NCBI GenBank assembly: GCA_001821395.1 | Contig: MHLM01000006.1 | Location: 1-64,000, forward strand | Length of the DNA stretch: 64,000 nt | Direction of reading: 5' to 3' | Source of the DNA: Candidatus Lloydbacteria bacterium RIFCSPHIGHO2_02_FULL_50_18 | GTDB taxonomy: Bacteria > Patescibacteriota > Minisyncoccia > Phycocordibacterales > UBA6899 | Shown here: positions 7,582-58,583 of the stretch, one piece after another | Position numbering within the stretch: position 1 is the stretch's first letter | How the letters are laid out: each line of letters begins with the position of its first letter | The notes under the pieces: model-generated | The model's input: only the letters and a program-made list of their open reading frames with translations | Databases searched by the model: none | What the model was told of the DNA's origin: nothing | Position numbers and translations under genes: made by a program

Positions 7582-7740
7582 AATTTGCTCTAGCGGGGTT
7601 TAAAGCGGGGAGGTAAGCAAAAGGCTCCCAGCCATTGCGATGGTGCCTTTCGGCGACCACCCGTATCCCTTTCGAGACACGACCCGCTAGAGCGACTCTG
7701 ACTGGGAGTCTTTTATTCTCTAGCGGGGATTTTCGACCAT
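7582..7740 (-). promoter_or_regulatory. Structured leader or small RNA with three copies of the CTCTAGCGGG motif able to form alternative pairings, plus nested hairpins
   Basis: CCCCGCUAGAG (from 7718-7728) and CUCUAGCGGG (from 7683-7692) form a 10-bp stem; a third copy (7588-7598) lies 9 nt before the AUG of 7015..7581; GAAA and CGCA tetraloop hairpins between them. Confidence 0.4.
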
Positions 7741-7809
7741 ATCCTAAAGCGTGAGCCGTAGGGGTTAGGTCTCCTATTAAGTTGTACTTGGTATTGTACG
7801 GCATATAAA

Positions 7810-21271: not shown

Positions 21272-21302
21272 CGACCTATCAGGTCTAGAACCTTTAATGC
21301 CA

Positions 21303-21359
21303 AAAAGCGACCCTTCTGGGTCGCCTCTTGGGTCTCTGCGTCGGGGGTGCCTATAGGGA
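21303..21359. repeat. Putative attR: the partner of the 57-bp direct repeat, overlapping the tRNA-His 3' end and its terminator hairpin
   Basis: See 290..346; the GCGACCC-TTCT-GGGTCGC hairpin serves as the tRNA terminator. Confidence 0.75.
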
Positions 21360-29403: not shown

Positions 29404-29709
29404 CAGAGTGCAAAAAGAGTCTCCCCAAGTTCACAAATACTCAGTCAGCCAAAGCGGGCGATTTTTGTTTGTAGCGAAACGTCCACTCACGCAAGCCAAG
29501 CAATTAAATAGGGAGGATGCTTGGTCACAGATAATTTTCTCGTCGTCATTCGAAAATTTCTGCGACCCCGACTCGCTGCGGTTTCTGCTGAAACCGCATT
29601 CGCTCCGTCTTTCAAATCCCCTTAAAAAAAGAAGATTTGAATCTTACAGATTCGGTACACCTTTCACCACGAAGAGTACTTCATTTTTCTAAGGCGGAGT
29701 ACCGCTAAG

Positions 29710-29806
29710 AAAAATTGGTCGGTGATTTATTCAGCATAAGAATGCTTCATAAATATCACAAAGCTTTTCAAATCCTCTCTCGCGACTGAAGCAGCGACCA
29801 ATTTTT
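29710..29806. repeat. Conserved hairpin motif, copy B (core 29727..29756) inside an outer 12-bp inverted repeat AAAAATTGGTCG/CGACCAATTTTT, with an inverted 16-nt tRNA-Leu 3' fragment at 29767..29782
   Basis: Core 30/32 identical to 380..411; inner stem GTGAT/ATCAC covaries with copy A's CTTTGCG/CGCAAAG. Confidence 0.6.
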
Positions 29807-29861
29807 CTTCATGGTATTCCATGTTAGAAAAATGAAGTACCCTTGTGGTGTTCAGTCGCTT

Positions 29862-29914
29862 CGGGCACAAATACAAAAAAGTCGCACTGTGCGACTTTTT
29901 TGTATTTGTGCCCG
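29862..29914. repeat. Perfect palindrome with 26-bp arms abutting and overlapping the last 6 nt of tRNA-Leu(GAG)
   Basis: cgggcacaaatacaaaaaagtcgcac t gtgcgacttttttgtatttgtgcccg. Confidence 0.8.
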
Positions 29915-29992
29915 AGAGAGGATTTGAACCTCCATGCCCTTACGAGCGCTACCACCTCAAGGTAGTGCGTCTACCAATTTCGCCACCCGGGC
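29909..29992 (-). tRNA. tRNA-Leu (GAG), type II
   Basis: Acceptor GCCCGGG/CTCGGGC, anticodon loop TTGAGGT, long variable arm, T-loop GGTTCAAATCC. Confidence 0.85.
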
Positions 29993-30090: not shown

Positions 30091-30543
30091 TTATTCAGCA
30101 ACGGCTTCGTTGGACTCTGCTTCCACGGGAACCTGGGTTGCCTCAAAATCCTTCGTTGATCCGCCTCCCATGCGGGTCTGTTTTAATTTGCGGCGGACAT
30201 CTCGGACAGCCTTGTCACGCACATAGTAGAGTTTCGAACGACGGACGACGGAACGTTTTACGAGTTCGATCTTATCGATCATCGGTGAGTAGAGCGGGAA
30301 GATACGCTCAACACCAACATTACTTGCGACCTTGCGCACGGTGAATGTCGCCCCAGTCTCCTTTCCATGCTTTCGTGCGAGCACCATTCCCTCGAATGCT
30401 TGCAAGCGATACTTTTTCTTTTCCGCATCCTCAAGCACCTTTACCCAAACGCGAACGGTGTCACCGGTGCGAAACTCAAGCTTGCGGCGTGACTCCACGT
30501 CAACAGGAGAGAGCGTAAACTTCGTGTGCAATGTGGAATTCAT
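30091..30543 (-). CDS. rplS: Ribosomal protein L19 with a basic C-terminal extension
   Basis: FRTGDTVRVWVKV..EGMVLARKHGKE..GVERIFPLYSP L19 core. Confidence 0.85.
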   Translation of the reverse strand: MNSTLHTKFTLSPVDVESRRKLEFRTGDTVRVWVKVLEDAEKKKYRLQAFEGMVLARKHGKETGATFTVRKVASNVGVERIFPLYSPMIDKIELVKRSVVRRSKLYYVRDKAVRDVRRKLKQTRMGGGSTKDFEATQVPVEAESNEAVAE

Positions 30544-30669
30544 AAGTTGATATTAATGATAGTATTCGCGTGTCACTTATGCAGAGGGGGGCTTTTATGC
30601 CGACCAACCTGCTCCACGTATGCGAATGTAGTCGCCAATCTAGCACGACCACCCCCATCGTGCAACTGT

Positions 30670-30732
30670 CCTATATTTTGCTTCATATTTTCTCACTTTT
30701 TTGTCAAGGTTTAACCTTGACATTTTGCTAAG
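30670..30732 (+). repeat. REP-like element copy 1 (extended 5' part plus palindrome TGTCAAGGTTTAACCTTGACA)
   Basis: Roughly 55 bp similar to 50601..50653 and, inverted, to 31463..31520. Confidence 0.75.
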
Positions 30733-30737
30733 TTTCG

Positions 30738-31424
30738 ATGAGAATGTGCGCTATGGCAAGATCAATTACGTTCGCCCCCGGTGAGTATTACCATATCTAT
30801 AATCGTGGCACCGACAAACGCCTCATCTTCCTTGACCAAGCAGACCATGAGCGCTTCATCTCTCTCCTCTACCTCTGCAACAGCGGCATCCCCATTCATC
30901 GGAGTGATCACCGCGTCACTTCTCTCGATGATATTTTTCTTATTCCGAAGGAGACATCACTGGTAAACATCGGTGCATACTGCCTCATGCCAAATCACTT
31001 TCATTTATTGTTGAACGAACAATCAGAAGGCGGCATCAGTCTCTTCATGCAAAAGCTCATGACCGCGTATACGATGTACTTCAACAAAAGGCATCTCCGC
31101 AAAGGAACGCTTTTTGAAGGCAGTTTTCAGGCGACACACGCGCAGAAAGATGAATACCTGAAGTATCTTTTCGCGTATATCCACTTGAATCCGATCGGCA
31201 TCAACGCCGAAGGATGGAAAGAGCACCACATTAAGGACACCAAGGCGGCAGAACTCTTCATTCAAACATACCCGTATTCAAGCCACCTTGATTATGCAAA
31301 GTTAGGATCCCCGCGCAGACAAGGAGTAATCCTCAACAAGCTCGCATTTCCCGAATACTTCGAAAAGCAACGGGATTTCAATGAATACATTAAAGACTGG
31401 ATGAGTGGGGACAAAGAGCCATAG
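30738..31424 (+). CDS. IS200/Y1-type HUH transposase, RAYT-like (REP-associated tyrosine transposase)
   Basis: YHIYNRG..CLMPNHFHLLL HUH motif; flanked by inverted REP palindromes. Confidence 0.8.
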   Translation: MRMCAMARSITFAPGEYYHIYNRGTDKRLIFLDQADHERFISLLYLCNSGIPIHRSDHRVTSLDDIFLIPKETSLVNIGAYCLMPNHFHLLLNEQSEGGISLFMQKLMTAYTMYFNKRHLRKGTLFEGSFQATHAQKDEYLKYLFAYIHLNPIGINAEGWKEHHIKDTKAAELFIQTYPYSSHLDYAKLGSPRRQGVILNKLAFPEYFEKQRDFNEYIKDWMSGDKEP

Positions 31425-31462
31425 TTTGAGACTACCCCCAGTCGCCCTCCGCCGTCCACGCA

Positions 31463-31520
31463 TGTCAAGGTTAAACCTTGACAAAAAAGGTCAAAAAAAT
31501 GGCTTAAAATATGAGATAGG
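31463..31520 (-). repeat. REP-like element copy 2 (inverted relative to copy 1)
   Basis: TGTCAAGGTTAAACCTTGACA plus an extended arm whose reverse complement matches copy 1. Confidence 0.75.
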
Positions 31521-31551: not shown

Positions 31552-32292
31552 CTACCCTAATGAAACTCCAAAAAGTGGGGCTGCGCTTTCAAAATCGGTG
31601 GGGTACGGTGCCGTGACCTCCATCTTTTTTCCTGCATAAAGAAACGCAATCCTCCGTGCATGTAGCGCCAAGCGCTTGAACCCGCACGCAGACGCTTTTG
31701 TTCCTCCATACCGAGTATCCGCAGCGATCGAATGTCCGAGTGCACTCAAATGCACGCGCAACTGGTGTGTGCGACCGGTTTTTGGACTTAACTCAAGAAA
31801 GGAATACTTATCATATTCTCCAAGCACAGCGTAGTCGGTAATGGCTGACCGAAGTGTCCCTCGTGCATGCGGCGCAATTGCCCACTGTCGAAAGTCCGCA
31901 CGGTTACGCCCAATGGGCATATCGATCCTTCCGTGGTCATTTTCGAGAGATCCGCGCACGACCGCATGGTACGTCTTCTCGATCTTTCTTTCGAGAAATT
32001 GTCGCTGCAGGTCGAGGAATGTTTGCGCATCTTTTGCAATGAGTAGCACTCCCGATGTGTCACGATCAAGGCGATGCACGATACCCCACCGCTCGACATA
32101 TCGCCCCGAGTCGAGCGTATGTAGCCCACCGATATCTTTCAGTTCAGGATATTTTTCTTTCACCCAGTCGCTGAGCGTAGCCTCCGTAGTGCGCCCATCT
32201 GAATGCACAACGAGACCAGCCGGCTTGTTTATCACGAGCAGGTGCTGATCTTCATAAAGGATCGTTGGGGTGATTTGACTCACAATACTCAA
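31552..32292 (-). CDS. RluA-family pseudouridine synthase
   Basis: HRLDRDTSGVLL catalytic motif. Confidence 0.8.
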   Translation of the reverse strand: MSIVSQITPTILYEDQHLLVINKPAGLVVHSDGRTTEATLSDWVKEKYPELKDIGGLHTLDSGRYVERWGIVHRLDRDTSGVLLIAKDAQTFLDLQRQFLERKIEKTYHAVVRGSLENDHGRIDMPIGRNRADFRQWAIAPHARGTLRSAITDYAVLGEYDKYSFLELSPKTGRTHQLRVHLSALGHSIAADTRYGGTKASACGFKRLALHARRIAFLYAGKKMEVTAPYPTDFESAAPLFGVSLG

Positions 32293-44149: not shown

Positions 44150-44260
44150 ATATCCCCCTATAACTGTTTTGGTAGATAACAGGAATTAGGGAAAATAAAG
44201 GAAAAAATCTACAGTAATGAACGAAGCACCCACTATAGCTGTTTTGGTAGACAACAGCGG
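44150..44260 (+). repeat. Two degenerate copies of the tRNA-Lys 5' half (44154..44183 and 44229..44258)
   Basis: CCCCCTATAACTGTTTTGGTAGATAACAG and CACCCACTATAGCTGTTTTGGTAGACAACAG versus tRNA CCCCCTATAGCTCAGCTGGTAGAGCAG. Confidence 0.6.
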
Positions 44261-44301
44261 ATAAGTGTAGCCAGAAATAACTCCACCACACACAATGACA
44301 T

Positions 44302-44374
44302 CCCCCTATAGCTCAGCTGGTAGAGCAGTAGCCTTTTAAGCTAACGGTCGCAGGTTCGAGCCCTGCTGGGGGGA
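44302..44374 (+). tRNA. tRNA-Lys (TTT)
   Basis: Acceptor CCCCCTA/TGGGGGG, anticodon loop CTTTTAA, T-loop GGTTCGAGCC; terminator AAAACCGCGCAAGCGGTTTTTT downstream. Confidence 0.85.
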
Positions 44375-44530
44375 CAAGACATAAAACCGCGCAAGCGGTT
44401 TTTTGCTGGGACCCACAAGAAAGTGCCCTACGGCACTTTCGGCAGGGCTCGAAAAGGTTCTCCGTTATTTTCTGGAAATTCCTATTTCTAGAAAATCGGA
44501 AACCTGCACTGCGCCTGTAAGGCGAGAGAC

Positions 44531-50522: not shown

Positions 50523-50600
50523 GCAAAAAGCGGGGGTCTTTCACTTCGTCTATTAACGGTTCATTCCAATGACTTCATCCTCGACTCTCCAACGAACTCA

Positions 50601-50653
50601 TCCTATATTTTTCAACATATTTTCACCGTTTTTTGTCAAGGTTTAACCTTGAC
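50601..50653 (+). repeat. REP-like element copy 3 (solitary)
   Basis: CCTATATTTTTCAACATATTTTCACCGTTTTTTGTCAAGGTTTAACCTTGACA, near-identical to copy 1. Confidence 0.75.
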
Positions 50654-50683
50654 AAAAAACGTCGATGGAGGAGCGGGGGGTGT

Positions 50684-50917
50684 TTAATCTTTATCCTCAC
50701 CCCATCCTGATCCAAACTCATAATTAAGCAGCGTGCGCGCCTCATCCACGTCCTCTTCTCGAAGCGCAAAAAGGTCGAAACCAAAGGCCTCTCCACTCGT
50801 TTCAGATCTCGCTCCTTCACGATTGCGAATGAAGCTCTTGATCCCATGCGTGATCAAGAACTGGCGTGTATCTCGCGCCTGATCCGCCTCGCGAAAGAAT
50901 TTGATCCGCGTACTCAT
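50684..50917 (-). CDS. Small hypothetical protein (DUF2007-like?)
   Basis: 77 aa; 4-bp overlap with tsaE. Confidence 0.35.
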   Translation of the reverse strand: MSTRIKFFREADQARDTRQFLITHGIKSFIRNREGARSETSGEAFGFDLFALREEDVDEARTLLNYEFGSGWGEDKD

Positions 50918-57805: not shown

Positions 57806-58049
57806 GCTCGCTCCGCTCCGCATCGGCGTGGTATCTCAGGAGCTCCGCTCTAGATTATCTTGAGAAACCAACGGTTTCTCAGGCTCTTCCTCAGCGGAGT
57901 CCCCGCCGCAAGCGGACGGGGTATGGAGAGAAATGAAGCCCCCCGAGGCAGAGCATACCCTCACTCCGCTACCGCTCCGTATCGACAGAATATCGAGAGA
58001 TTCGCCCTAGACCACCCTGAGAAACCAACGGTTTCTCAGGCTCTTCCTT
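57806..58049 (+). repeat. Two ~85-bp direct repeats (period ~160 bp), each carrying the hairpin GAGAAACC-AACG-GTTTCTC
   Basis: 31-bp cores at 57861..57891 and 58018..58048 identical; no ORF. Confidence 0.7.
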
Positions 58050-58583
58050 GGTGGAGACCCTGTAGTAGAACCACGAGGAATTGAGAGACTGAAAACTGGT
58101 GTGTCGATATTATCGATACCACAGACGGTGTCCAAAAAGGGGAGGTGTCGGATGAAACAAATTATCGAATAACTACCGCCATTATGTTTTCTCTTTGCAC
58201 ATGCTTATAGTAGCAAATGCGAAGAGTAAAATTACTGTTGCAACTAATTTCCGTTAGGTATCACCACAATTCAGGGGAACAAGATTTCAAGAAATTATTT
58301 CGCACGAAGTTTCAACGTATCAAAAATACAAAGGGCCAGTTCGATCACCATGGGCAGGAGCCCGGGGGTTAATCGTCGGCTAGAGTGTGGAAGTGAAATA
58401 GGGCATCAGCGAAGCGCTGGTGAGTTTTACGCACCGCAGCGCCTATTACTCAAACTGCGCGTCCATTCCCGTGCAGAGCACGGGATTTTAATTCCGCACA
58501 ATAAAAAGCCCCGCGCCGTATTTGCATACATGCGTGGGGCGATATTGAAGGTCAAAATATCAGCATGACACAAGAAATCCAAG

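Follow-up and report, generated by a model that had tools for sequence, protein, structure and literature searches.

The question raised by this locus is what a Y1 HUH gene enclosed by palindromes is doing in the chromosome of a bacterium of the Patescibacteria (candidate phyla radiation, CPR). The sequence analysed is a stretch of 64,000 nucleotides from Candidatus Lloydbacteria bacterium RIFCSPHIGHO2_02_FULL_50_18 (assembly GCA_001821395.1, contig MHLM01000006.1, positions 1 to 64,000 of the forward strand), referred to here in its full length as the window. The gene lies between two inverted copies of a palindrome, and a third copy is found 19 kb away, an arrangement that an earlier, sequence-only reading had described correctly, with coordinates within a few bases. 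It could represent an active insertion sequence (IS), a set of repetitive extragenic palindromes (REPs) with their REP-associated tyrosine transposase (RAYT), a regulatory element, or chromosomal sites served by a domesticated enzyme. We consider it most probable, at roughly two chances in three, that the locus is a module resembling the published REPtrons (a RAYT, or TnpA_REP, together with its REPs) and TIRtrons, consisting of a single-copy, vertically inherited RAYT-type Y1 HUH gene, inverted cognate repeats of about 55 nt and solo copies of the repeat at low density. Seen in this way, it is a CPR form of the REP/RAYT system with few copies and an unusually conserved hairpin. The features of the locus are as follows.

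30666..30723, plus strand: left repeat unit, with the AT-rich outer extension at 30666-30701 and the hairpin TGTCAAGGTTTAACCTTGACA at 30702-30722
30717..30745, plus strand: promoter-like site of the Y1 gene, with a -35 box TTGACA at 30717-30722, a 17-nt spacer and a -10 box GAGAAT at 30740-30745
30753..31424, plus strand: Y1 HUH gene (RAYT-like, class-2 TnpA_Y1); the longest open reading frame (ORF), 30738..31424, encodes 228 aa
31462..31519, minus strand: right repeat unit, in the orientation opposite to that of the left unit, with the hairpin at 31463-31483 and the outer extension at 31484-31519
50600..50654, plus strand: solo repeat unit in the same orientation as the left one, with the extension followed by the hairpin at 50634-50654

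The palindrome, TGTCAAGGTT(T/A)AACCTTGACA, is 21 bp long and occurs at 30702-30722, 31463-31483 and 50634-50654, where dinucleotide-preserving shuffles of the window, with up to three mismatches allowed, gave an expectation of 0; relaxed searches at the same tolerance found no fourth copy in the 64 kb. Beyond the palindrome, the repeat continues on a single side: each copy carries an AT-rich extension of about 35 nt with the approximate consensus TATATTTT-N4-6-CCATATTTTC-N3-5-TTTTT, which is placed on the outer side of both gene-flanking hairpins. The arms at 30666-30723 and 31462-31519 thereby form a 58-nt inverted repeat with 79% complementarity, and 50601-50654 repeats 30669-30722 in direct orientation (89% identity). 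Among the window copies, the central base of the loop tracks the orientation of the extension. Folded as single-stranded DNA, each copy is predicted to form a 9-bp stem with a 3-nt loop (-8.2 to -12.1 kcal/mol; z-scores of -4.9 to -6.5), while the extension is left unpaired; the foot of the hairpin reads TTTTT-TGTCAAGG. In the solo copy (50634-50654) flanking T5 and A5 runs lengthen the stem to 13 bp. This unit lies upstream of polA, between polA and a 77-aa ORF (stop at 50684, 30 nt away) beyond which TsaE is the next gene. An Rfam scan of the window at gathering thresholds gave no match at the hairpins, and a known RNA family was rejected as their identity. We also tried the hairpins as intrinsic terminators and rejected this reading, because the left copy, which fits a simple terminator pattern, precedes both of the genes next to it, and no T-run follows the right copy whichever way it is read.

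The window contains one copy of the Y1 gene, located between rplS (30543..30091, minus strand) and a gene for an RluA-type pseudouridine synthase (32292..31552, minus strand). In the numbering of the 228-aa ORF the HuH motif is H87-F88-H89 and the tyrosine motif Y147-IHLNP, and residues 71-149 match the Pfam family Y1_Tnp (E 6.8e-9). The exact 228-aa protein has no database record; for the identical protein P0001, the annotation places the start at a later codon. There are 6247 database homologs, those with names belonging to lineages of the Patescibacteria. An alignment of 40 of them shows H87, H89, Y147, H149, L150, N151 and P152 (NHFH and YIHLNP) to be invariant, with additional conservation of FQ (as SFQ) and of a C-terminal YSS. 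NHFH, FQ, YIHLNP and SS are listed as class-2 signatures in Table 1 of PMC6006769, where class 2 (RAYT-type) is characterised by Y-x3-NP and the IS200 transposases by Y-x3-Q. A fold search with an AlphaFold model of the protein (pLDDT 90.3, the predicted local distance difference test score) returned as its best solved match 4er8_A, the E. coli RAYT on a REP hairpin (E 8.8e-6), with weaker matches to the TnpA proteins of ISDra2 and IS608 (about 2e-3). Sequence searches against solved structures were too insensitive to contribute, giving no match for the single sequence and only marginal ones for a profile of the 40 sequences. Since the motif is Y-x3-NP rather than Y-x3-Q and the best fold match is 4er8, we assign the protein, from its motifs and predicted fold, to the class-2 (RAYT-type) HUH proteins and not to the IS200 TnpA proteins. 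The sequence-only reading had likewise called the gene a RAYT, leaving room for an ordinary IS200 TnpA flanked by IS ends; the Y-x3-NP motif and the inverted copies of one hairpin close off this second option. It had also proposed a comparison with the RAYT groups, which, carried out on motifs, upholds class 2 and brings out subclass 2.1 as closest. The combination NH[YF]H, FQ, Y[IV]HLNP and SS, with a median length of about 238 aa, defines subclass 2.1, equivalent to Bertels group 1 and to the "TIRYT" proteins of Di Nocera (PMC6006769), and it is in these motifs that the window protein resembles that group.

The association of the gene with a pair of hairpins is a property of the whole protein family. 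We collected 80 metagenomic loci and several contigs encoding named homologs, and nearly all of these homologs (41-74% identity) have a palindrome about 50 nt upstream of the start codon and a further copy downstream, positioned anywhere from 15 nt inside the stop codon to about 50 nt past it. Across the 83 distinct homologous loci for which both flanks were available, the two flanks of the same gene match exactly, in inverted orientation, over 12 nt or more in 49 cases, compared with 3 of 83 when flanks were randomly re-paired. The palindromes vary from locus to locus by changes that affect the two arms and the two copies alike, so that one finds TGTCAAGG, TGTGAAGG, TCTCAAGG and TATCAAGG, as well as ATCAAGGCG, CCATAGGC, ACCGAGGG, CTGCAAGG and others, with the inner AGG...CCT mostly retained; the hairpin thus co-varies with the protein across the family. 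That the paired copies are inverted is confirmed by their loops, of which one is the reverse complement of the other (TCTTG and CAAGA, for instance). The stop codon is provided in many homologs by the downstream hairpin, and this accounts for the C-termini ...KVEP* and ...SRLNLD seen in the alignment. Four loci contain two Y1 genes, and the palindromes, where detected, differ between the two genes of one locus. Together with the REPIN-like hairpin doublets present in some flanks, these gene-specific palindromes match the published behaviour of RAYTs and REPs.

Three side observations concern these flanks. At six loci the gene's own palindrome is also present within the Y1 coding sequence (L073, L075, L094, L133 (~+175 nt), L124 (+290) and L100 (+460)); REPs within tnpA_REP have been described for subclass 2.4 (PMC6006769). 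Immediately beyond the hairpins, DnaA boxes (TTATCCACA, up to one mismatch) occur in 21 of the 91 upstream flanks of Y1 homologs and in 15 of the 83 downstream ones, the background being 5.6% per 150 nt. About 10 of them are exact 9-mers and the window element has none; upstream examples, at -60 to -72 from the ATG, include L073, L087, L097, L099, L100, L116, L117 and L134, and downstream ones L073, L082, L100, L116, L117 and L118. Finally, in the Taylorbacteria contig MHRY01000044.1 (L005) another palindrome, ACGAGGTTCGACCTCGT, stands on either side of the Y1 gene, and the same genome contains six exact 21-mers of the TGTCAAGG type, one of them 4 kb from the Y1 gene. These belong either to a second, unseen Y1 gene or to orphan sites.

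The position of the gene is maintained over considerable divergence. The order rplS-Y1-rluA is kept at L026 (74% identity) and L059 (65%), and partly at L004, where the contig ends right after the hairpin that follows rluA. At L059 both hairpins have been altered in place, the left one to TGTCAAGACTAAGTCTTGACA and the right one to TGTCAGGGCTAAGTTTTGACA, in which pairing is kept solely through G·T pairs on the sense strand. The GC content at the Y1 locus gave no compositional sign of recent transfer. Because this gene order is kept at 65-74% identity, we conclude from the comparison of these sequences that the Y1 gene is a vertically inherited, domesticated gene and not an active IS.

To the dispersal of the repeat, the sequence-only reading had contributed the suggestion of a genome-wide REP family. 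In a scan for the exact 21-mer through one genome per species (596 Gb) we found 63 copies in 21 assemblies, where about 0.3 are expected by chance, which disposes of the possibility that the palindrome is confined to the three sites in the window. All but one of the 21 assemblies are Patescibacteria or unclassified metagenome-assembled genomes (MAGs). Lloydbacteria GFS_13726 has 12 copies and the MAG GL114_DN_metabat_102, the closest relative, has 10, most of them with an AT-rich extension resembling that of the window copies; a Taylorbacteria and a Gottesmanbacteria genome have 6 each, a Nomurabacteria genome 3 and several Saccharibacteria genomes 1-4 each. The only exact 21-mer outside the Patescibacteria, in the Tissierellia MAG contig JAAYQA010000008.1 (L045, 957-977), is at the start of a ylxM-like ORF; with about 0.3 matches expected, it is compatible with chance. 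Exact copies directly flank the Y1 gene at L026, L022 and L036/L030, and on one side only at L051, the Y1 proteins of these loci being 43-74% identical to that of the window. Further palindrome copies within 10 kb of other homologs are rare. The evidence on a genome-wide family is indirect: dispersed solo copies exist but are few, with one in the 64 kb of the window, 10 exact copies in the nearest representative genome and 1-12 elsewhere. The repeat family is real but small, in line with Bertels group 1, for which about 12 occurrences of the flanking 16-mers in each replicon are reported (PMC5581495).

Placed beside published systems, the locus has most in common with REPtrons (E. coli YafM, PDB 4ER8; PMC2817692, PMC6006769, PMC8266576). 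It shares with them a single-copy, vertically inherited Y1 HuH gene with Y-x3-NP and the best fold match to 4er8, inverted cognate hairpins that flank the gene, occur elsewhere in the genome and co-vary with the protein, and, in multi-paralog loci, a separate hairpin for each paralog. Perfect-palindrome REPs form a recognised group (PMC8266576). The differences from REPtrons include the AT-rich 5' extension of about 35 nt in the window lineage, the length of the window protein (223-228 aa, with about 70 extra C-terminal residues), the fusion of the CPR hairpin to the -35 box and often to the stop codon, and the presence of the same 21-mer in distant lineages. Subclass 2.1 and the TIRYT-TIRtron systems (PMC3733652) agree with the locus in protein motifs, in length (228 aa, near the median of 238 aa) and in having a low-abundance flanking repeat, in the form of terminal inverted repeats (TIRs) that are in some cases self-complementary, with moderate families of solo copies. 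They differ in that the TIR motif GGGGWSAS is absent from the window flanks, which are perfect hairpins, and in that published subclass 2.1 proteins are reported to have a tail resembling Bac_DnaA_C or a helix-turn-helix (HTH).

Several observations weigh against the assignment to a REPtron- or TIRtron-like module, and some of them also mean that "classic REP/RAYT arrangement", the term used in the sequence-only reading, goes too far. The GTAG/GTGG tag typical of REPs at the foot of the hairpin is present in none of the copies; the published atypical subclasses 2.6 and 3 are also without this tag (PMC6006769). The protein scores 37.9 bits against the NCBIfam RayT equivalog NF047646 (REP_Tyr_transpos), whose cut-off is 80. 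The subclass that it most resembles is reported by Quentin et al. to have no REP-like structures (PMC6006769), whereas perfect hairpins accompany nearly every member here. At 1-12 exact copies per related genome the repeats are one to two orders of magnitude less numerous than classic REPs, which are extragenic, usually exceed 100 copies and run to hundreds. In addition, the hairpins are nearly always perfect (104 of them contain 5 internal mismatches), so that a folded single strand and a double-stranded inverted repeat fit the data alike; for the same reason a strand test comparing G·T with A·C mismatches was uninformative. Lastly, about a quarter of the exact sites are inside housekeeping genes and in frame, and the exactness of orthologous sites among them looks like conservation and not like turnover.

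The genes with internal sites encode GatB, RecJ, LigA (two independent sites), ArgRS, MurD, UvrC and an Nth-like glycosylase, and further two GT4 glycosyltransferases, an FAD oxidase and a PMT_2 protein. The first group is distributed over the following loci.

LigA: L031, L043
ArgRS: L016
GatB: L012/L044
RecJ: L015/L019
MurD: L021/L055
UvrC: L041
HhH-GPD: L032

The in-gene 21-mers are almost always read as (L/M)SR(L/F)NLD. In LigA, the site can be aligned gap-free with the E. coli enzyme and with LigA of another CPR bacterium (TLSRLNLD here, ELARINAS there), and the DNA of the CPR relative is identical at only 13 of 30 positions. Native codons have thus been replaced with no change in length, an outcome predicted neither by cut-and-paste nor by copy-in of a hairpin. 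ArgRS differs by 1-2 residues although the gene holds a 33-bp perfect palindrome, and the sites in GatB and RecJ are associated with 2 and 9 extra residues, respectively. A comparison of two species shows no difference over 23 nt at the recJ site, against 71% identity in the 600 nt around it; at the gatB site, where the flanks are 73% identical, the one change is in the loop centre, and two genomes have the murD site at the same offset. Stems, moreover, run on past the 21-mer with unrelated, site-specific sequence, at least 3 extra pairs being formed at 19 of 66 sites compared with 1.6% expected, and up to 10 pairs at the longest. Since only exact matches were collected, the sample is biased towards sites that look conserved, and we therefore treat the in-gene conservation as unexplained and not as proof of selection. 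Intragenic palindromic repeats in frame within housekeeping genes are known from the Rickettsia palindromic elements (RPEs), from REPs (PMC3733652) and from subclass 2.4 (PMC6006769), and they share with the present copies the occurrence in the Y1 gene itself and the strong preference for one frame; they differ in that the LigA copy adds no residues and the ArgRS and GatB copies nearly none, and in that orthologous copies are kept exact between species.

These copies within genes are among the arguments for a different interpretation, according to which the hairpins are conserved chromosomal host sites, comparable to parS or Ter, that are bound or processed by a domesticated Y1 protein and are not selfish repeats; a new site would be created when the hairpin replaces an equal length of sequence, and selection acting at the DNA level would preserve it afterwards. 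Beyond the length-neutral LigA site, the stem extensions and the exact recJ, gatB and murD sites in diverged flanks, this interpretation draws on the low number of copies per genome and on the identity of the 21-mer in Saccharibacteria, Gottesmanbacteria, Nomura-, Taylor-, Lloyd- and Vogelbacteria and Paceibacterota, lineages whose Y1 proteins are only 43-57% identical to that of the window. Most family members, however, have other palindromes, which leaves no universal site, and the host and neighbouring genes have no common theme. Intragenic REP insertions are known for other RAYT classes (PMC6006769, PMC3733652), the extra residues in RecJ and GatB are compatible with insertion, and the collection by exact match favours sites of conserved appearance. 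On balance we find it unlikely that the hairpins are host sites of this kind. A Patescibacteria-wide form of the idea, in which a domesticated Y1 nuclease and its hairpin make up a host system whose low-copy site is written length-neutrally, coding DNA included, and kept exact by selection on DNA as far as Saccharibacteria and Gottesmanbacteria, is in our view doubtful.

The promoter of the Y1 gene is part of the module favoured above and also the starting point of a second alternative. The -35 box TTGACA of the promoter-like site in the window is the 3' arm of the left hairpin, the site matches at 10 of 12 positions, and 7 nt separate its -10 box from the ATG at 30753. When 86 homologous loci were aligned on the start codon, a conserved TATAAT appeared at -12 to -7, often preceded by TG, together with an enrichment of T-T-G at -35 to -33, within the 3' arm of the upstream hairpin. 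A TATAAT in this position leaves no room for a ribosome-binding site, and the Y1 gene family in CPR therefore appears, judging from these sequences, to be expressed from leaderless mRNAs. The same geometry makes 30753 (223 aa) the probable true start of the window gene, and not 30738 (228 aa). As a protein on the hairpin would overlap the -35 box, autoregulation of the Y1 gene through its upstream hairpin is plausible, and may reasonably be inferred.

The fixed distance between the upstream hairpin and TATAAT could thus mean that the palindrome is mainly a double-stranded operator or promoter element, bound by the Y1 protein or another dimeric regulator, with the other copies serving as further operators. 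Perfect palindromes whose arms change in concert would also be expected from a dimer on duplex DNA, and the published subclass 2.1 proteins have an HTH-like C-terminal domain (PMC6006769). The copies elsewhere fit this poorly. The second copy of each pair is at or over the stop codon, where it has no obvious operator role, and the solo copy in the window is not followed by a -10 box. Among 92 neighbouring or host ORFs, 37 face the site with their 3' end, 32 face it with their 5' end and 23 contain it, so that solo copies have no 5'-end preference. These ORFs map to 101 Pfam families, of which, apart from glycosyltransferases and genes shared through orthology or synteny, only Y1_Tnp recurs. 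The absence of a shared gene theme and of a 5' bias argues against a regulon, and a regulon or operator for DNA-repair genes was rejected on these grounds; PolA, LigA, RecJ, UvrC and the Nth-like gene do stand among the neighbours and hosts, an apparent excess of repair genes that was noticed post hoc. With matches accepted up to E 1, Pfam gave no HTH or DnaA_C (Bac_DnaA_C) domain for the last 70 residues of any of the 40 homologs, the fold of the C-terminal helices not having been searched by itself. The catalytic HuH and tyrosine residues, which a pure repressor would not need, are invariant. A role purely or mainly as an operator therefore seems to us improbable by a wide measure.

An active IS of the IS200/IS605 type, with the hairpins as its ends and the third copy as a leftover end, is scarcely credible: the Pfam domain name "Transposase IS200 like", the 58-nt terminal inverted repeats, the Y1 HuH fold and the DNA hairpins beside the gene recall the TnpA proteins of IS608 and ISDra2, but such elements are multi-copy, encode proteins of about 130-150 aa with Y-x3-Q, often carry tnpB and have two different subterminal hairpins, left and right, on one strand, whereas the window has one copy in 64 kb at a conserved rplS/rluA position, Y-x3-NP, inverted copies of one hairpin, no tnpB and a palindrome without a match in viral contigs.

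Returning to the REPtron- or TIRtron-like module, a course of events can be proposed by analogy with E. coli TnpA_REP and with the TnpA proteins of IS608 and ISDra2. The Y1 protein would bind its hairpin in single-stranded DNA, for example on the lagging-strand template, and would cut and rejoin nearby DNA by means of Y147 and the HuH metal site. This reaction might occasionally copy or move repeat units, the solo unit at 50600-50654 being one possible product, and the window enzyme would in this way propagate its repeats, as the sequence-only reading had also suggested. Bound to the upstream hairpin, the protein may repress its own promoter.

Other features of the window are recorded here for completeness. 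A LOOT RNA (RF03000) is predicted at 7642-7771 on the minus strand (Rfam 71.4 bits; gathering score 46.4). Three further repeats are unrelated to the Y1 hairpins: an 86-nt direct repeat at 261-346 and 21274-21359 (85% identity), the second copy of which abuts tRNA-His; a 52-nt direct repeat at 379-430 and 29724-29775 (87%); and a 61-nt inverted repeat at 29672-29732 and 29784-29844 (80%), between tRNA-Leu genes. At 29861-29915 the two 27-nt arms of a perfect inverted repeat are separated by 1 nt; the outer arm reaches into the 3' end of tRNA-Leu(gag), and the inner part resembles a bidirectional terminator (A6-GTCGCAC-T-GTGCGAC-T6). Two copies of about 99 nt (57833-58088; 74% identity, spacing 157 nt) each contain a hairpin CTGAGAAACC-AACGG-TTTCTCAGG. 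At 44152-44324 three repeats of about 25 nt are spaced by about 74 nt, the third being the 5' part of tRNA-Lys (44302-44375) and the first two receiving no tRNA call from ARAGORN or Rfam.

RAYTs, REPtrons, TIRtrons, perfect-palindrome REPs and intragenic REPs are already known (PMC2817692, PMC3733652, PMC6006769, PMC8266576). In the literature searched we found no paper that ties RAYTs or REPs to CPR or quotes the palindrome in such a context. What appears to be new is that a type of protein reported to be REP-less has, in a very large clade of CPR bacteria, a strict order of hairpin, gene and hairpin, that the hairpin is fused to the -35 box and the stop codon, with a likely leaderless transcript, and that the 21-mer is identical across distant CPR lineages, with length-neutral, conserved copies in essential genes. 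RAYTs and REPs have so far been described almost wholly from complete genomes of cultured bacteria. The CPR clade adds a clean natural data set on the co-variation of hairpin and enzyme, and the 9-bp stem offers a simple substrate for biochemistry. The hairpin promoter, the likely leaderless mRNA and the exact, length-neutral copies within genes bear on the role that domesticated Y1 nucleases play for their hosts.

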